DNA of 64,000 nucleotides, taken from the NCBI GenBank assembly GCA_963662405.2, contig CAXXKT010000001.1, positions 2,080,001 to 2,144,000 on the forward strand, read 5' to 3'. Below, piece after piece: positions 3,986 through 35,528 of the stretch. The stretch's first letter is position 1, and the number at the start of each line of letters is the position of its first letter. Source of the stretch: Syntrophales bacterium. GTDB taxonomy: Bacteria; Desulfobacterota; Syntrophia; Syntrophales; UBA2210. The translations under genes and the position numbers were made by a program. A model generated the notes under the pieces. The model saw nothing but the letters and a program-made list of their open reading frames with translations, was not told where the DNA came from and ran no database searches.

Positions 3986-4023
3986 ACTGAAATGCGTTCT
4001 CTGCGACCGAATAAACTGATACT

Positions 4024-4329
4024 TTACTTCAACTCGCGCGCAAAGAACGCTGCGGCTTTTTTTAAGATTTCATTCTCTTCCTTTACTTTGGCTAACTCAT
4101 GCCGTAATCGACGGGTCTCGTCCGCTGCGGTCCCGCTTGCTGGGCGTCGTCCGGATCCGGGAAACGCACCGCCACCCGCTCTATCCACCGTCTCTTTCCA
4201 CTTATACAACTGGTTCCTTCGTATCCCCAACTCACGGGCCAGTTCAGCAGGTGGCTTTTTCCCCTCGTCCATCAATCGCACTGCTTCAAGCTTAAACTCC
4301 CGGCTAAATGCCTGTCGCTTCCCTCTCAT
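4024..4329 (-). CDS. IS3 OrfA (HTH)
   Basis: FSREFKLEAVRL...ARELGI...ENEILKKAAAFFA. Confidence 0.92.
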   Translation of the reverse strand: MRGKRQAFSREFKLEAVRLMDEGKKPPAELARELGIRRNQLYKWKETVDRAGGGAFPGSGRRPASGTAADETRRLRHELAKVKEENEILKKAAAFFARELK

Positions 4330-4578
4330 CGGACACTCCTTTCTTCTCCATTGTATACGCATCCGGATACTTTTTGAAGTGTCCGTTAAACTGGGGAAGG
4401 TTCAAGGTGTCCCCGGAATTTCCGAGTGTTCGGAAAAGATTGTAAATTAATCCGGGAAGTGTCCCTGATTTTCCCTGGTGAGGAACCGAGGCGGGCAAAG
4501 CGGTCGGAAAAGAGATTCGTAAAATAATACGGGAAGTGTCCCTAGTTTTTGCGGTAAAAAGGCAATCCCTGAAACTCC

Positions 4579-4606
4579 TTGACAATTTTCATAAAAGTTA
4601 TATCAT
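4579..4606 (+). promoter_or_regulatory. sigma70-like promoter
   Basis: TTGACA-16 nt-TATCAT. Confidence 0.5.
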
Positions 4607-4695
4607 CCAGCCGTTGTGTTCATTCTGACAGATGTAAAAACCTGGTTTGCTTCTTTTAACAGTTGAAAGAGGGAACTATGAACGGATACCACTAG

Positions 4696-4733
4696 AGCCC
4701 CGTTTCTCATACAGAGACGGGGCTTTGTGTTTG
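4696..4733 (+). terminator. Intrinsic terminator-like hairpin
   Basis: AGCCCCGTTTCT...AGAGACGGGGCT followed by a T-rich tract. Confidence 0.6.
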
Positions 4734-4849
4734 TGGGGAGCAGACGATCAGGCATCTTGGAGCGTTCTAAAAAGATTACAATTTAATACGGGAAGTGCCC
4801 CCCCGTTTTTCGCATAGAGGAAAAGGAGGAATGATAAAAAGTCTTCATG

Positions 4850-5015
4850 AGCTGTGAATTGGGATACACTGTTTGAAACTTTATAGTTTTGGGCAGCAAG
4901 GCTACTGTTCGACATGTTTACTGGTCTTCGAGACCGCAAAGGAGAATGAAGAGCTGTAGCCGCAACATTCAATGATCTTCGAGATCGAATAGGAGATTGG
5001 GACCAATTCACCTGA
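4850..5015 (+). ncRNA. Putative IS110 bridge RNA (target- and donor-binding loops)
   Basis: Two guide-hairpin-guide modules matching the target and the element-end junction; closing stems GGCTAC/GTAGCC and GTGAATTGG/CCAATTCAC; ends approximate. Confidence 0.8.
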
Positions 5016-5047
5016 CAGGCGCTGTCCAAGATGTGAGGAGGCGTTCT

Positions 5048-6160
5048 ATGAAGATGAGTATCGGGGTTGACCTTCACAAGACGCAGTTTACCGTTTGTTG
5101 TTTGAGTGAAGATCGGAGTGTTCAGGAGTCGGGCATCTACCCGACGACTGATCGAGGTTACCGGGCATTTATCATGAAGGTGTCCAACTGGAATGAGGGC
5201 GGTTACGAGGTCACGGCAGCGGTGGAATCAACAGGGAACACCCGACACTTTCGCAACCGGTTTTTGAAGGCGGGGATTGAGGTCAAGATAGTGAACACCT
5301 TGAAATTCAAGGTTGTAAATGAGTCAGTAAAAAAGACTGACAAGCATGATTCCCGCACATTGGCTGAGTTTCTTGAGAAAGATATGCTTCCCGAGTCCAT
5401 TCTTTGTTCGCAGGAAAGCGAGGACATTCGAAGGCTTCTCAAGTCACGTTCTGTTCTGGTGAAAGCTTTGGTATCCTTGAAAAACCAGATACACGGTTTA
5501 TTGCTTGGATATGGGATAGAGAGTCGGCGGGGACAGCTGCAGAGCAAAAAAGAAAGGCAGCGAATCCTTGACGGTCTCGCGGACCATAGGAGTTACGGAA
5601 ACGCTGCCCGAGCGGTAAAACCGCTTCTTGGTACAATAGACCAAATTGCATCCGAGGTCAAAGGACTTGAGCGCGTATTATCTGATCTTGTTTCTGAAGA
5701 CGAGGATGTTGCTCTGTTGCAAACGATTCCTGGCGTTGGAATAATAACAGCAGCGACGATTCGGGCTTATACCGATGACATCAACCGATATGAGAGCGCC
5801 AAGCAGTATGCTGCTCATGCCGGTTTGGTACCATGGGTTCAAAACTCCAACAAGACCATTCGCCATGGTCATATTACCAAGCGAGGCCCCGTGGAACTGA
5901 GGACGGCTTTTGTGCAAATGGTAATGGGGATGCTACGGCTTCGGAATAAAACCGATGGATATTGGCTTATGTACAAATACAAAGCCATGAAAGAGAACAA
6001 GGGAACCGGGAAGAGCGTAATAGCGACGGCGCGAAAGATGAGCACTATTGTATATGCCATCTTGAAGAAGGGGGAGCCGTTTGATCCATCGAAAATGCTG
6101 CCAGACCCGAAATATGTAGAGATGAGTAAGGTTGCGAGGTGTTATGCTTTGGCCGTTTAA
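5048..6160 (+). CDS. IS110-family DEDD recombinase/transposase
   Basis: GVDLHK, AVEST, KTDKHDS (DEDD), IPGVG, GLVPWVQNS, ITKRG, ARKM; SD GAGGAGG before ATG 5048. Confidence 0.95.
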   Translation: MKMSIGVDLHKTQFTVCCLSEDRSVQESGIYPTTDRGYRAFIMKVSNWNEGGYEVTAAVESTGNTRHFRNRFLKAGIEVKIVNTLKFKVVNESVKKTDKHDSRTLAEFLEKDMLPESILCSQESEDIRRLLKSRSVLVKALVSLKNQIHGLLLGYGIESRRGQLQSKKERQRILDGLADHRSYGNAARAVKPLLGTIDQIASEVKGLERVLSDLVSEDEDVALLQTIPGVGIITAATIRAYTDDINRYESAKQYAAHAGLVPWVQNSNKTIRHGHITKRGPVELRTAFVQMVMGMLRLRNKTDGYWLMYKYKAMKENKGTGKSVIATARKMSTIVYAILKKGEPFDPSKMLPDPKYVEMSKVARCYALAV

Positions 6161-6220
6161 ATTTTAACCATGGGCCTGTTTGACAGGCTCTCCATGAATT
6201 GACTTTTTATAGGAGTAAAT

Positions 6221-6799
6221 ATGGCGACTACAAAATTGAGAATCGATTTGGATCAAGGAATCATTGAAGTTGAAGGTGAGGACTCCTTTGTCAAGGCGGT
6301 ATACGATGATTTCAAGGAAAGGTTATTATCCGATATGCCAGTTGAACAAAAGACTCGTACTGGCACAAAAGCTAATGCAAAAAAGAGATCCACTCCTAAG
6401 GCTAAATTGAAAACAGGAAACGCTTCTAAAAAGAAAAAGTCAAGCAAAGGAAGTGCATCTGGATCTATTGTTAAAGATCTTGATCTTTCGGGCGGGGGGA
6501 AGATTCAAAGATTGAAGGATTTTTTAGGGCAATATAAGGTTTCTTCAAATTTTGAACGAAATCTCATTTTCGTATATTACCTTCAGCATAAACTTAACAT
6601 CAAAGGTATAACCCTCGATCATATATTTACATGTTACCGTGATGTCGGCGCTAAAGTGCCTGCAGCACTTCAACAAAGCTTATGGGATACCACCAACCGA
6701 AGAGGTTGGCTTAATACTTCATCTTCTGAAAATATTCTAGTCACAGTGCCAGGCATGAACTTTATAGAGCATGACATGCCAAAATCGGGAGCTGAATAA
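6221..6799 (+). CDS. Hypothetical protein: short N-terminal domain, Lys-rich linker, C-terminal wHTH-like domain
   Basis: 192-aa ORF with SD AGGAG; AT-rich; fold is inferred. Confidence 0.75.
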   Translation: MATTKLRIDLDQGIIEVEGEDSFVKAVYDDFKERLLSDMPVEQKTRTGTKANAKKRSTPKAKLKTGNASKKKKSSKGSASGSIVKDLDLSGGGKIQRLKDFLGQYKVSSNFERNLIFVYYLQHKLNIKGITLDHIFTCYRDVGAKVPAALQQSLWDTTNRRGWLNTSSSENILVTVPGMNFIEHDMPKSGAE

Positions 6800-7569
6800 T
6801 GAATGATCAGTTAGAGGGCTTCTTGCAACAAATTCCTAATATCGGAGAACAATCATCCGCCTCATTGGTAGACTACTTCGTTTATTTTATAACTGTCATT
6901 CTGGGGGATGACACTGCCACACCTGCCGGTGTTGAGCGTTGTTTCGAGATAACCAAGATACAAAAATATTCAAATATTTCTTCTTATTTGTCTCGACAAT
7001 CAAAAAAATCCCGTGGAAAAACTGCAAAATACTTAAAATTAAAGACTGGTTACCATTTAGAACGCAACTCAGAACTCGAAATTCAAAAAAGCCTGCGCTC
7101 TGGACCCTCGAGGCAGGAAACAAGCCATTTACTCAGAGGAATGCTCCCCAAAATTAAAGATCCTAACAAAAAAGCATTTTTGCAAGAAGCTATAGATTGT
7201 TATGAAATTGGTGCAAGAAGGGCATCAATTGTCCTCACATGGATTCTAACGATCAACCACCTCTATGATTATATTATTGCGAAGGAGTTAGTTGCTTTCA
7301 ATACCGCTTTGGGGAAAAATACAGACAAGAGGATCAAGGTGTCTTCAATCACTAAGCTTGATGATTTTTCCGAGATTCCAGAAGGGAAATTTATTGAATT
7401 AATGAGGTCCGCAAATATTGTTTCTAATGATGTGAGGAAAATACTGGATGTAAAGCTCGGAATACGAAATTCCTCAGCTCACCCATCAGGGATTTCAATT
7501 TCTGAAGTCAAGGCTACTGATTTTATCATCGATCTTGTTGATAATGTAATCGCAAAATACCCGATTTGA
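6799..7569 (+). CDS. Hypothetical protein with a C-terminal HEPN/DUF4145-like domain
   Basis: FLQEAIDCYEIGARRASIVLTW helix and RNSSAH (R-x4-H); TAATG overlap with the upstream gene. Confidence 0.75.
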   Translation: MNDQLEGFLQQIPNIGEQSSASLVDYFVYFITVILGDDTATPAGVERCFEITKIQKYSNISSYLSRQSKKSRGKTAKYLKLKTGYHLERNSELEIQKSLRSGPSRQETSHLLRGMLPKIKDPNKKAFLQEAIDCYEIGARRASIVLTWILTINHLYDYIIAKELVAFNTALGKNTDKRIKVSSITKLDDFSEIPEGKFIELMRSANIVSNDVRKILDVKLGIRNSSAHPSGISISEVKATDFIIDLVDNVIAKYPI

Positions 7570-31074: not shown

Positions 31075-31755
31075 TTATGCCCGTGCCATCGAATCGAGTA
31101 TCCTCACTGCCTCGAATCCGTCCACACAGTACACATCCGCGCCGATCTCATCGGCGTATTCCTTTGAGACGGCGGCTCCTCCGACAAAAATCTTCACTTT
31201 CTCTCTCAGGCCCGCCGCGGTAATCGCCTGGATGACCTCGTCCATGACGAGCATGGTCGTTGTCAGGAGGGCCGACAGACCGAGGTAGGAGGTGTTGTTT
31301 TCCCTCACATAGTCGACGATTCGCTCCGTGGGGACATCGATCCCCAGATCGACCACCTCGAACCCCGCACCCTTGACGAGGATGGATACGATATTTTTCC
31401 CGATATCATGGATGTCACCCTTGACCGTGGCGATGGCGAAGGTCCCTTTGGCCTCGACGTTTGCCTGTTCGAGGTGTGGTCTCAGGATGTCCATAGCCGC
31501 GCTCACCGCCTCCGCCGAGGCGAGCATGTCGGGGACATAGTACTCCTTCGCGTCGAATTTCTTCCTTACCACCTCCATCCCCGCCGTCAGGCCATGGGTG
31601 ATGATGTCCTGCACGGGGATGGACCGATCGAGGGCGGCCTGTGTCAGTTCAAGGACGGCGGGACCGGTGAGGGAATCGTCGATCCCCTCGTCCTCTTCCG
31701 TCATCCTCCCCTGGATGACATTCTCTTTCAGCAGCGCTATCACATCTTCACTCAT
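31075..31755 (-). CDS. Corrinoid (B12-binding) methyl-carrier protein
   Basis: GDIHDIGKN, SALLTTT, VGGA. Confidence 0.94.
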   Translation of the reverse strand: MSEDVIALLKENVIQGRMTEEDEGIDDSLTGPAVLELTQAALDRSIPVQDIITHGLTAGMEVVRKKFDAKEYYVPDMLASAEAVSAAMDILRPHLEQANVEAKGTFAIATVKGDIHDIGKNIVSILVKGAGFEVVDLGIDVPTERIVDYVRENNTSYLGLSALLTTTMLVMDEVIQAITAAGLREKVKIFVGGAAVSKEYADEIGADVYCVDGFEAVRILDSMARA

Positions 31756-32891
31756 GGGTCTCCTCCCTTGTGGTATAACGGTTCAGCCGCGGCAGCATGC
31801 CGGGGATCTCCCTGAATACCTGCGCTGTTGTTTCTTCGTCGATATGTCGCGCGGGCCGTGCCAGCAGTTTGTTCATACGGTCGAAGGCCCGGGCGAAGAC
31901 CTCATCGGTGTCCCCTTCTCCTTCGAAGGGGTACGGGGGAGAGAGGAGGCCGCTCCGCAGGACCTTGCGGATGTGGCGAATGTACAGTTTCTGGGTGGTG
32001 GCGGAGACGTCCCTGATCTGTTCCAGGGTCTCAGCGATCTCGTGGTCATCGATATGAGCCGGGCGCAGGAAGAATTTGATCATCTGGAAGTGGGCGTCGT
32101 CGAGGACCGCCTGGAGGGGGCAGAAGACGGAATTGCAGTCGAGGAGCCCATAGGCACAGTGGAGATACTGGGGGCCACTCAACGTCACCAGGATGTTCGA
32201 GAAAAGCCGTTCGATGGATGATTGCTGGCCGGGGACCTTCGGGTCGCAGACCCCCGAAGTGGAGTAGTTGGGAATTTTGTAGAAACGGGCAAGCTGGACG
32301 CAGTCGATGTTGAACTGACTCGTTTCCACCGCTCCGTATGAATCCGCCAGGGAGTCCATCCGGGTCATGACGGGGACGCTCCCGTACATGATCGGTGTTC
32401 CCCGCCTGACGAGCTGGCCGAGGGTGATCCCCGCGAGTACCTCCGCGTTGATCTGCGCGATGATCCCCGCTTCTTTAACGGGGGCCGTGGTCCCCGCCTG
32501 CGGTGACGAGGAGACGACGACCGGCAGACCCTTCCGGCAGATCTCGATGAATGACTGCGTCGTGTCAGCGACGAACTGAAGGGGGCTTTTGACCAGACAG
32601 GTGATAAAGGAGAGGAGGGGATTTTTCCTCAGTCGGCCGGGACCGCCCGCTATAATCGTTGCCATTCGGAGGACATTTTCGAGCTGACCGATGTTGGTCA
32701 GTCCGATCATGACGTGCTTCGTCGTGTTGTCGAGGGAGGCGAAGACCTTGTTGACATCTTTGTTCTCCTCCGTGATGTCCGGGTCCTGTATATTGACGTT
32801 TCTGATAAAGGCGTCGAGTGTCTCAAGGTGCTCGCAGAGGTGCGCCGCCCGGCAGAGATCCTCAATAGTCCCCCGGCGCGGCGTAAAGGAG

Positions 32892-34278
32892 GAATGATAA
32901 AAAGTCTTCATGAGCTGTGAATTGGGATACACTGTTTGAAACTTTATAGTTTTGGGCAGCAAGGCTACTGTTCGACATGTTTACTGGTCTTCGAGACCGC
33001 AAAGGAGAATGAAGAGCTGTAGCCGCAACATTCAATGATCTTCGAGATCGAATAGGAGATTGGGACCAATTCACCTGACAGGCGCTGTCCAAGATGTGAG
33101 GAGGCGTTCTATGAAGATGAGTATCGGGGTTGACCTTCACAAGACGCAGTTTACCGTTTGTTGTTTGAGTGAAGATCGGAGTGTTCAGGAGTCGGGCATC
33201 TACCCGACGACTGATCGAGGTTACCGGGCATTTATCATGAAGGTGTCCAACTGGAATGAGGGCGGTTACGAGGTCACGGCAGCGGTGGAATCAACAGGGA
33301 ACACCCGACACTTTCGCAACCGGTTTTTGAAGGCGGGGATTGAGGTCAAGATAGTGAACACCTTGAAATTCAAGGTTGTAAATGAGTCAGTAAAAAAGAC
33401 TGACAAGCATGATTCCCGCACATTGGCTGAGTTTCTTGAGAAAGATATGCTTCCCGAGTCCATTCTTTGTTCGCAGGAAAGCGAGGACATTCGAAGGCTT
33501 CTCAAGTCACGTTCTGTTCTGGTGAAAGCTTTGGTATCCTTGAAAAACCAGATACACGGTTTATTGCTTGGATATGGGATAGAGAGTCGGCGGGGACAGC
33601 TGCAGAGCAAAAAAGAAAGGCAGCGAATCCTTGACGGTCTCGCGGACCATAGGAGTTACGGAAACGCTGCCCGAGCGGTAAAACCGCTTCTTGGTACAAT
33701 AGACCAAATTGCATCCGAGGTCAAAGGACTTGAGCGCGTATTATCTGATCTTGTTTCTGAAGACGAGGATGTTGCTCTGTTGCAAACGATTCCTGGCGTT
33801 GGAATAATAACAGCAGCGACGATTCGGGCTTATACCGATGACATCAACCGATATGAGAGCGCCAAGCAGTATGCTGCTCATGCCGGTTTGGTACCATGGG
33901 TTCAAAACTCCAACAAGACCATTCGCCATGGTCATATTACCAAGCGAGGCCCCGTGGAACTGAGGACGGCTTTTGTGCAAATGGTAATGGGGATGCTACG
34001 GCTTCGGAATAAAACCGATGGATATTGGCTTATGTACAAATACAAAGCCATGAAAGAGAACAAGGGAACCGGGAAGAGCGTAATAGCGACGGCGCGAAAG
34101 ATGAGCACTATTGTATATGCCATCTTGAAGAAGGGGGAGCCGTTTGATCCATCGAAAATGCTGCCAGACCCGAAATATGTAGAGATGAGTAAGGTTGCGA
34201 GGTGTTATGCTTTGGCCGTTTAAATTTTAACCATGGGCCTGTTTGACAGGCTCTCCATGAATTGACTTTTTATAGGAG
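32892..34278 (+). mobile_element. IS110-family element, copy 2 (apparently identical to copy 1; bridge-RNA region about 32913-33078)
   Basis: Constant 28063-bp offset; identical protein translation and end sequences on inspection. Confidence 0.95.
33111..34223 (+). CDS. IS110-family recombinase/transposase
   Basis: Same translation as 5048-6160. Confidence 0.95.
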   Translation: MKMSIGVDLHKTQFTVCCLSEDRSVQESGIYPTTDRGYRAFIMKVSNWNEGGYEVTAAVESTGNTRHFRNRFLKAGIEVKIVNTLKFKVVNESVKKTDKHDSRTLAEFLEKDMLPESILCSQESEDIRRLLKSRSVLVKALVSLKNQIHGLLLGYGIESRRGQLQSKKERQRILDGLADHRSYGNAARAVKPLLGTIDQIASEVKGLERVLSDLVSEDEDVALLQTIPGVGIITAATIRAYTDDINRYESAKQYAAHAGLVPWVQNSNKTIRHGHITKRGPVELRTAFVQMVMGMLRLRNKTDGYWLMYKYKAMKENKGTGKSVIATARKMSTIVYAILKKGEPFDPSKMLPDPKYVEMSKVARCYALAV

Positions 34279-34718
34279 GGAACTATGATCTCCGTTGCGG
34301 GGTCCGATTTCTTCGTATAGGTCTCAACGTCGACATCAAGCCAGGTATTGGTCTCGGAACCGGAGACGAAGTAGACCCGCGGCTCGTCGCCGTGCATGAC
34401 GAGGGTATTCGCGGGGTCCCGGGCGCCGAGGGTAATCGAAGAAGGGGTACTGTCCAGGGCGTCGAGGACGACCCGTTCCGGGATCCTGACGATCCGATGG
34501 GGGGGCGCGGCGGCATCGGTGGCCGAGGAAACATAGGCGCCGCCGTCGGCGAATATGGCCGCGGCCTCCTCGTTGAAACAGATGAGCCCCGGGTTTTTGA
34601 GCATTTCCAGCGATGCCCGGTGGATCTTCCCGATCTGATCTTCTGTCAGGCGTTCAAGGGGATTATCTATGAGCAGGCCTTCTCTGTGCATGAATGTCTT
34701 TTCTCCTCTTCATGATGA

Positions 34719-35528
34719 TTATTCTTCCAACAGACCCTTACGGTAGGCCCGTGTGTATTTCCGGCAGAGGGAATCTCTGCCGGTCAGCATATCGGCCGCC
34801 CGCACCAGCCCCATCATCCGGGTGTCGAGGGGATTGAGGATGGCCGCATCGAGCCCGGCCGCGGCCGCCATGAGCATGAAGGAGCGGTTGACGATTCCCC
34901 GCCCCGGCAGACCGTAGGAGATGTTGCTGAGTCCCATAACGGTCTTGGCCTCGGGATAACGCTCCTTGAGGGCTTCGATCGTCTTCAGTGTGATGAGCCC
35001 CCGGGTGGTGTCGACGGAGATAGGGAGGACGAGGGGATCGAAATAGACCCGCTGTGGGGGGACTCCCGCCCCGCCGAGATGGTCCATGATGATGTCGGCC
35101 GCCTCGATCCGCTCCTCGACGTTCCGGGGAACCCCGGCACCCTTCATCACCAGGGCGATAATGCGAGCGCCTGCTTCGGCCACGATCTTCCCGATCGGGC
35201 CGAGGCGGTCCGCCTCGGCGGTGACCGAGTTGATCATCGCCTCTTCGCCGCGGTACGCGGTAAGGGCCGCCTCCAGGACGGCCGGATCGTCACTATCGAT
35301 ACAGAGGGGCTTGTCCGTTGCCTCCTGCACGACCTCCATGAGCCACCGCATGATCTCGACAGGGGTGCTCCCCGCGCCCCGGCCATCACCGGCGTTCACA
35401 TCGATATAATCAGCTCCGGCCGCCGCCTGATCGCAGGCAAGGGATACCAGTGATTCCCGGTCCTGTGCGGCAATGGCCTTTCCCGTCGACGGGATGGACG
35501 CGTTGATCTTCTCTCCGATTATCAGCAT
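34719..35528 (-). CDS. Methyltetrahydrofolate:corrinoid methyltransferase (AcsE-like, pterin-binding)
   Basis: IIGEKIN, IDVNAG, CIDS, INSV, FDPLV, GLSNISYGLP. Confidence 0.9.
   Translation of the reverse strand: MLIIGEKINASIPSTGKAIAAQDRESLVSLACDQAAAGADYIDVNAGDGRGAGSTPVEIMRWLMEVVQEATDKPLCIDSDDPAVLEAALTAYRGEEAMINSVTAEADRLGPIGKIVAEAGARIIALVMKGAGVPRNVEERIEAADIIMDHLGGAGVPPQRVYFDPLVLPISVDTTRGLITLKTIEALKERYPEAKTVMGLSNISYGLPGRGIVNRSFMLMAAAAGLDAAILNPLDTRMMGLVRAADMLTGRDSLCRKYTRAYRKGLLEE

Follow-up and report, generated by a model that had tools for sequence, protein, structure and literature searches.

IS900 of Mycobacterium avium subsp. paratuberculosis inserts after the ribosome-binding site and before the start codon, its recombinase gene runs antisense to the targeted gene, and an open reading frame (ORF) on its complementary strand, hed, uses host signals. 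IS900 is a member of the IS110 family (PMC8141618), and the published description of its target gives the motif CATGNNNNNNTCTCCTT, the reverse complement of which is AAGGAGA-N6-CATG. The closest described RNA-guided systems are the IS621/IS110-group bridge-RNA elements (Durrant et al. 2024, PMC11208160) and the IS1111-family seekRNA elements such as ISEc11, ISKpn4 and ISPa11 (Siddiquee et al. 2024, bioRxiv 10.1101/2024.04.26.591405). All three sources are cited here from excerpts. The element described here is an insertion sequence in a 64,000-nucleotide (nt) stretch of DNA from a Syntrophales bacterium (contig CAXXKT010000001.1, positions 2,080,001 to 2,144,000), which is called the window and to which all coordinates refer. 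Copies 1 and 2 of the element are located in this window (Table 1). The insertion sites, the predicted RNA structure and the covariation between guides and flanks in relatives make it likely that this is an active RNA-guided IS110-family insertion sequence, the guide RNA of which would read the Shine-Dalgarno (SD) sequence strictly and the start codon loosely.

The element features characteristics of both RNA-guided groups. [quoted passage not shown] The 2-nt CT core of IS621 corresponds to AG on the sense strand here, and a promoter-like site likewise lies across the joined ends. A long non-coding end with an RNA gene upstream of the recombinase gene is the arrangement of the IS110 group; however, the other two marks of that group, absent or 2–3-bp repeats and a bottom-strand-first guide order, are not found. 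The subterminal inverted repeats are 10 bp instead of 2–3 bp, and the top-strand match (4913–4922) is located 5' of the bottom-strand match (4938–4944). This reversal of guide polarity relative to IS621 had been noticed in a first-pass annotation of this DNA, and the order is one already described for IS1111-family seekRNAs (10.1101/2024.04.26.591405). The element further differs from IS621 in that the strictly read target half belongs to a 7-nt 3'-side strand, the remaining half is loose and variably spaced, and the donor end copies the target (AGGAG), whereas the excerpts describe the donor and target of IS621 as sharing the core only.

With the IS1111 elements (10.1101/2024.04.26.591405) the locus shares subterminal inverted repeats within about 7–17 bp, extensions of 7 bp on the left (AGGAATG) and 3 bp on the right (AGG) with the core counted on the left, the top-strand-first order of the guides and the lack of a target duplication. 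It was also correctly anticipated that IS1111-like subterminal repeats would be combined with an upstream non-coding region, as 10-bp repeats and a left end of 219 nt were found. In contrast to IS1111, the repeats are shorter than the usual 11–13 bp, the long non-coding region downstream of the recombinase gene is missing, and the RNA gene precedes that of the recombinase, an arrangement given in the same preprint only for rare exceptions such as ISMtsp17. The clade to which the element belongs mixes the distinguishing features of the two groups, namely an upstream RNA gene with IS1111-type ends and guide order.

The recombinase gene here is co-oriented with the targeted gene, whereas that of IS900 is antisense. 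The likeness to IS900 (PMC8141618) concerns the described target motif only, which in both cases consists of an SD sequence, a spacer and a start codon; the excerpts of that description report that insertions are rarely inside coding sequences and give no bridge-RNA account of the target. Since the IS900 motif already combines the two signals, aiming at an SD sequence plus a start codon is not new for the IS110 family. Among the matches listed in full-text searches, no paper was found that ties IS110, bridge RNA or seekRNA to Shine-Dalgarno sequences, ribosome-binding sites or start codons. The element offers an RNA-level explanation for the old observation that some IS110-family elements (IS900) have the ribosome-binding site on one side and the start codon on the other, and it shows the same habit in a separate clade.

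The genome (3.80 Mb in three contigs) contains nine copies of the element, and all nine have [A/T]AAGGAG directly to their left, while the right flanks diverge from the first base. An ATG is located 5–9 nt to the right of the element in eight of the nine copies, which agrees with the proposal of the first-pass annotation that insertion occurs at Shine-Dalgarno/start-codon sites. In seven copies this ATG, at the same distance of 5–9 nt, opens an ORF of 71–239 amino acids. Pfam domains begin near residue 1 in five of the six targeted ORFs scanned, and the products are a nitroreductase, a DUF6680 protein, a SIMPL protein, an OmpA-like barrel and a flagellar rod protein; the ORF of the seventh targeted gene, at 6221–6799, has no Pfam match. 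Because only 206 of the 917 free AAAGGAG sites precede such gene starts, seven of nine copies at starts is unexpected (P = 7e-4 for seven or more of nine). The orthologous flagellar-rod loci of three same-genus genomes are element-free and feature one SD sequence, 7 nt and ATG, and this spacing equals that from the element's terminal GGAG to the ATG in the present genome. These empty sites bear out the claim that the right end restores the SD sequence, as ATAGGAG stands at the original spacing. Copy 2 is found within a gene, with positions 29–122 of the MTTB-family Pfam profile on one side and 133–422 on the other. Its plus-strand site is nevertheless AAAGGAG-GGAACT-ATG, despite lying inside a minus-strand gene, and an ATG at spacing 5–7 occurs in just 27 of 711 free AAAGGAG sites outside gene starts.

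Relatives of the element were collected with a protein-seeded scan that gave 77 loci from species genomes and, from metagenomes, the best 80 of 260, with identities from 91% to 31%. According to the record titles, they come from Desulfobacterales, Spirochaetia, Treponema, Leptospira, Dehalococcoidales, Dysgonamonadaceae, Clostridia and Lentisphaeria, and of the 157 loci, 102 fit a strict first-loop pattern and 115 a looser one. The consensus structure of 27 distinct left ends, determined with RNAalifold, conserves a closing stem, the outer stem of the first loop and the inner hairpins of both loops, and 12 of its 26 predicted pairs show compensatory changes on both sides. The fold of the single sequence (z = -3.0 against shuffles) recovers the closing stem, the 5' stem-loop and the first loop. 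Because the hairpins and stems are kept with compensatory changes in relatives, the structure is not a chance feature, and the two-loop architecture of the first-pass annotation is upheld. From these results we infer that the left end encodes a bridge (seek) RNA of ~180 nt that consists of the closing stem, the 5' stem-loop, the target loop and the donor loop. A structured RNA gene in the non-coding end, with two loops that carry conserved hairpins, is what is expected of such RNAs. No Rfam family was detected in 4000–7000 at E up to 1. An internal promoter-like site at 4859–4887 (9/12) was considered and not adopted, as conservation is low there and its transcripts would begin within the RNA.

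The two modules had been proposed to be target- and donor-binding loops, and this assignment is supported by the relatives, in which all four guide segments covary with the flanks or the element ends. The 3' strand of the target loop was compared with 89 distinct left flanks; the heptamer of the same element matches its own flank at 7/7 positions in 61, at 6/7 in 25 and at 5/7 in 3. Flank positions -7 to -5 covary with the guide, with 2.49 of 3 positions matching versus 1.41 after shuffling (z 4.4, 1/10000 permutations). A Spirochaetia genome with 16 copies has TTAGGAG guides and [A/T]TAGGAG flanks, and CAAGGAG and AGAGGAG guides likewise have matching left flanks. To judge from these matches, the Shine-Dalgarno half of the target is read strictly. 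In the donor loop, the 5' strand contains a pentamer that is reverse-complementary to element bases 1–5 (z 7.3, 0/10000 permutations) and tracks the element starts GAATG, GCACG, GCATG, GTATG, GAACG and GAGTG. In 101 of 102 loci the 3' strand of this loop is identical to the right end, and ATAGAAG is present in both places in all five loci that feature it. The strands of the donor loop are thereby complementary to the joined element ends, as described for bridge and seek RNAs. The AAUG that follows GGAG in both loops was also considered as a 'handshake' guide for the left end, and it was rejected because AATG persists in the target loop of relatives whose left end begins with GCACG or GCATG.

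The start-codon half is less simple. In the target loop, the 5' strand has a constant length of 10 nt and a terminal T, and it starts with CAT in 50 of 62 distinct sequences that were retrieved with a pattern not requiring CAT. Among 90 distinct right flanks, 81 have an ATG within 5–9 nt after GGAG (45 at 6, 17 at 5, 9 at 7, 7 at 8 and 3 at 9), and in three flanks there is none, so that the enrichment of SD-ATG sites expected at the insertion sites of relatives is present. When the flanks are anchored at the ATG, bases -3 to -1 covary with guide positions 4–6 (z 4.6, 0/5000 permutations). This signal persists separately at spacing 5, 6 and 7–10; it disappears when the register is moved by 1 or 3 nt, and a shift of -2 gives z 2.7. 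Anchored at the SD sequence, pairing of the 5' guide is weak over ten offsets, with the best value (z 2.5) in the spacing-6 register and z 1.3 in the spacing-5 register of the first-pass annotation. The covariation indicates that the start-codon half is read loosely, with only the ATG and the three preceding nucleotides covarying and a distance to the SD sequence that varies by a few nucleotides. The target-loop strands are complementary to both target strands and meet at the core, with a weaker right half and variable spacing. Regarding the earlier description of the target as 14 nt comprising a ribosome-binding site plus the start codon, both halves are supported; however, a rigid 14-mer does not describe the target, since the spacing varies and is most often 6 and not 5, and the spacer pairs poorly.

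Twelve metagenome loci of ~55% identity form a subclade in which the 5' strands do not start with CAT and the 3' strands are not SD sequences but CACGGAG, CACAAAG, CGCGGAG, CGCAAAG, CGCAGAG or AGGGGAG. In the ten loci with a usable left flank, the element's own heptamer is matched at 7/7 positions in nine and at 6/7 in one. None of the 12 loci has an ATG at spacing 5–7. The right flanks resemble the reverse complement of the element's own 5' strand in L166 (7/9) and L152 (6/9) in the spacing-6 register, and the remaining ones match best at shifts of -1 to +3. Permutations within the subclade gave z 2.3 and z 1.6 and have little power because the guides of the subclade resemble each other. As the loss of CAT goes with the loss of the ATG in the target and with matches to the element's own flanks, the 5' strand is a guide, and the structure does not depend on CAT. 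A subclade whose guides and sites both differ is, on this comparison of guides and flanks, a case of natural reprogramming, and the clade provides a natural series of reprogrammed guides. The targets CGCGGAG or CACAAAG share with the donor ATAGAAG only the terminal AG or AAG, which locates the core at the AG of the sense strand, with CT opposite. As a separate observation, the subclade targets look like short tandem repeats, CACACAAAG / ATCACAAAGAAG and CACACGGAG / ACACGGAGGAG around the insertion point, and in these examples a second occurrence of the left-target heptamer lies directly to the right of that point.

There are several observations that weigh against RNA-guided reading of both halves. 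One of the nine copies, on contig 2, is intergenic with no ATG nearby. Pairing of the 5' guide is poor, with 1.48 of 3 at positions -3 to -1 versus 1.01 shuffled, and positions -4 to -6 show no covariation with the guide. According to RNAalifold, two invariant pairs could be formed instead between the CA of CAT and the UG of the 3' strand, and a variable half-site spacing is without precedent in the excerpts on IS621, the guides of which both abut the core (PMC11208160). The permutation tests take related guide families as independent, and 42 of the 157 loci, which include truncated contigs, decayed copies and Lentisphaeria-type relatives with a differently built left end, are outside the loose guide pattern and were excluded from the guide analysis. 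In the contigs of four sequencing runs, the region 4500–6600 showed no joint that would mark a circle junction or an exact empty site. Several of these points would be accounted for if only the SD half were specified by RNA, so that insertion takes place at any [A/T]AAGGAG, the rebuilt SD sequence renders copies ahead of genes harmless and lets them persist, intragenic copies are purged and CAT is structural. The 5–9-nt range of ATG spacings in this genome, the weak SD-anchored covariation, the pairing of CA with UG and the copy with no ATG are in line with this explanation, and purifying selection on intragenic insertions would also enrich gene starts, just as selection could produce the scarcity of IS900 within coding sequences described in the excerpts (PMC8141618). 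This explanation is nevertheless unlikely, since it does not provide for the register-specific ATG-anchored covariation, for the relatives that have neither CAT nor a target ATG and the 5' strands of which match their own right flanks, or for copy 2, which disrupts a gene and yet has an ATG at spacing 6 against the low background at non-start sites.

Two further explanations dispense with RNA guidance. Recognition of GGAG in the DNA by the recombinase protein itself, with the left-end hairpins as merely regulatory or protein-binding sites, is very improbable, because variable positions covary between the RNA-coding DNA and the flank or end at all four segments and the covarying set includes the subclade with non-GGAG targets such as CACAAAG and CGCAAAG. 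Every copy is flanked by a 5-nt direct repeat, and AGGAG at both junctions could accordingly be read as a 5-bp target-site duplication left by a transposase that lacks specificity, with the resemblance between hairpin and flank due to chance. This can be dismissed almost entirely: the repeat is identical at all nine copies and about 90 insertions of relatives, the base before it consistently differs (T in the element end versus A or T in the flank), and the orthologous empty sites have one SD sequence with the spacing unchanged. Guidance by RNA at both halves is thus preferred here. A more specific version, in which the bridge RNA reads the translation-initiation region as two half-sites with elastic spacing (a strict SD match where the crossover takes place and a looser NNN-ATG match 5–9 nt away) and the element is a nearly neutral 'stealth operon insert' on the sense strand of the 5' untranslated region (5' UTR) that uses the host promoter for its guide RNA and recombinase and supplies the gene with a new SD sequence, is tentative and has somewhat less than an even chance of being correct.

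In the proposed mechanism, an RNA from about 4847 to about 5026 would be made from the left end, and its target loop would hold the bottom strand of the host SD sequence and the top strand of the adjacent spacer with the start codon, with GGAG-N6-ATG as the modal register. The donor loop would read the joined ends of a circular form, ATAGGAG from the right and GAATG from the left, across a predicted junction of ...TTTTTATAGGAG joined to GAATGATAAAAAG.... Exchange would occur at a 2-nt core, AG on the recombinase-sense strand and CT on the other, and would place the element immediately 3' of the SD sequence, always co-oriented with the gene, while the ATAGGAG of the right end would supply the gene with a new SD sequence at the old distance from the ATG. 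Expression of the RNA from the circle-junction promoter or by host read-through, its binding to the recombinase, the circular intermediate and continued expression of the downstream gene are presumed steps of this scheme. As the element is located in the 5' UTR in the sense direction, host transcription should extend through the recombinase gene as well as that of the RNA. A terminator-like site was not detected in the element's right end, and transcription may therefore continue into the downstream gene; the suggestion that this gene is cut off from its own promoter is not established. An elastic spacer between guide segments, if true, would be a new rule for bridge-RNA targeting, and variable start-codon spacing would bear on the design rules of bridge recombinases and on off-target prediction. 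The SD-restoring right end would represent a mobile element that lowers its own cost.

The recombinase matches PF01548 DEDD_Tnp_IS110 (E 8e-19, residues 5–155) and PF02371 Transposase_20 (E 3e-20, residues 222–302), and these domains, together with sequence-specific insertion without a true target duplication, place the element in the IS110 family sensu lato. Its gene is the single ORF between non-coding ends of 219 nt (left) and 55 nt (right), and the element starts with GAATGAT (4829–4835). Because the left flank and the element both terminate in AGGAG, the boundary could be placed differently by up to 5 nt. All strings quoted in the first-pass annotation are present at the positions it gave, including the module-1 guide ATGTTTACT (4914–4922) and the module-2 guide AACATTC (4964–4970), and the promoter it proposed across the joined ends, TTGACT, 17 nt and TAAAAA, reads as claimed in both hexamers and spacing, with TGn directly before the -10-like hexamer. 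The conservation of this promoter is not independent evidence because it overlaps the inverted repeats.

Table 1. Features of the insertion sequence and its target, with window coordinates.
Feature	Position	Strand	Details and basis
Insertion sequence, copy 1	4829..6215	+	1387 bp; boundary may shift by ≤5 nt within repeated AGGAG
Insertion sequence, copy 2	32892..34278	+	splits minus-strand MTTB-family gene at fortuitous AAAGGAG-N6-ATG
Left target half, host Shine-Dalgarno AAAGGAG	4822..4828	+	last two bases AG, putative core; identical to module-1 3' strand
Left subterminal inverted repeat ATAAAAAGTC	4834..4843	+	reverse complement of 6201–6210; conserved in relatives
-10-like hexamer TAAAAA after TGA	4835..4840	+	putative circle-junction promoter; read from sequence
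P1 long-range closing stem, 5' strand GTGAATTGG	4854..4862	+	pairs with 5003–5011; compensatory changes; single-sequence fold
5' stem-loop SL1	4869..4896	+	single-sequence fold; stem-forming in relatives by eye
Target-binding stem-loop	4900..4961	+	outer stem GGCTAC 4900–4905 / GTAGCC 4956–4961; compensatory pairs
Target loop 5' strand CATGTTTACT, right-target guide	4913..4922	+	10 nt ending in T; covariation; reprogrammed relatives
Target-loop inner hairpin GGTCTTCGAGACC	4923..4935	+	compensatory changes, GC to AU in 5 sequences, UA to CG in 7
Target loop 3' strand AAAGGAG, left-target guide	4938..4944	+	equals top strand, so pairs with bottom strand
Donor loop 5' strand AACATTCAAT	4964..4973	+	CATTC (4966–4970) is reverse complement of element bases 1–5, GAATG
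Donor-loop inner hairpin GATCTTCGAGATC	4974..4986	+	two pairs with compensatory changes (13 and 10 sequences)
Donor loop 3' strand ATAGGAG	4989..4995	+	identical to element right end
P1 3' strand CCAATTCAC	5003..5011	+	consensus structure; single-sequence fold
Terminal hairpin GACAGGCGCTGTC	5014..5026	+	before recombinase ribosome-binding site; single-sequence fold
Recombinase gene, 370 aa	5048..6160	+	Pfam DEDD_Tnp_IS110, Transposase_20
-35-like TTGACT	6199..6204	+	putative circle-junction promoter; read from sequence; conserved in relatives; overlaps right subterminal repeat
Right subterminal inverted repeat GACTTTTTAT	6201..6210	+	reverse complement of 4834–4843; conserved in relatives
Right end ATAGGAG, new Shine-Dalgarno for downstream gene	6209..6215	+	at original spacing; conserved in relatives; empty orthologous sites
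Right target half, copy 1: spacer TAAAT and ATG of ORF 6221–6799	6216..6223	+	read from sequence
Subclade with non-SD guides			L142, L143, L149, L150, L152, L157, L159, L161, L162, L164, L165, L166

Of the nine copies, eight share one sequence and the ninth differs from it by one substitution. No match to the left end was detected in seven same-genus genomes or in 11 further genomes of the same family, and among 12 genomes from other families of the same order one contains it twice at 84% identity. The patchy distribution and the near-identical copies point to a recent arrival and a transposition burst. A 75%-identical copy is located on a Thiospirochaeta perfilievii plasmid, 6 nt before the ATG of a 41-codon ORF that is unannotated in the listed table. 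The distant Lentisphaeria-type relatives also end in ...ATCATAGGAG, and in 12 of 13 distant relatives with an identifiable right end an ATG is present within 5–10 nt (flanks read by eye). A tblastn search of the recombinase against plasmids gave ISLin1 (30%) and IS4321 (27%), over 77% of the query, which does not decide between the IS110 and IS1111 groups.

Some rearranged copies were also encountered. L065 is a 5'-truncated, decayed copy in which homology to L027 starts exactly at the AGGAG of the target-loop guide DNA (L065:1330–1520), and a metagenome contig matches the left end up to window position 4937 and continues with TAAGGAG, 7 nt and ATG. The breakpoint of L065 and the 4937/4938 junction of this contig would fit recombination that uses the guide-encoding DNA as a pseudo-site. 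L149 contains two copies in tandem, as one copy's right flank coincides with a second copy's left junction, and in L048 the last ~30 nt of the right end are tandemly duplicated. A contig of ~1 kb from the sequencing runs features a 43-nt piece that is like the right end (6175–6217), with a 2-nt deletion and in another context; this piece is absent from the assembled genome outside the nine copies (at ≤1 substitution in the last 17 nt).

In the stretch 31748–34691 around copy 2, the minus-strand MTTB-family (trimethylamine methyltransferase-like) gene is split into two parts, and it is adjoined by a gene with a pterin-binding domain at 34719–35528, also on the minus strand. The genes downstream of copy 1 (6221–7569) encode proteins of 192 and 256 amino acids with no Pfam family, and their stop and start codons overlap. 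Upstream of copy 1 there is a strong promoter-like site at 4579–4606 (TTGACA, 16 nt, TATCAT; 11/12) and a 15-pair terminator-like hairpin at 4693–4727, which, at ~100–250 nt upstream, may together produce a short transcript or leader. Further upstream, an HTH_Tnp_1 ORF at 4024–4362 on the minus strand corresponds to ORF A of an IS3-type transposase, and the neighbourhood of copy 1 therefore contains other mobile DNA.

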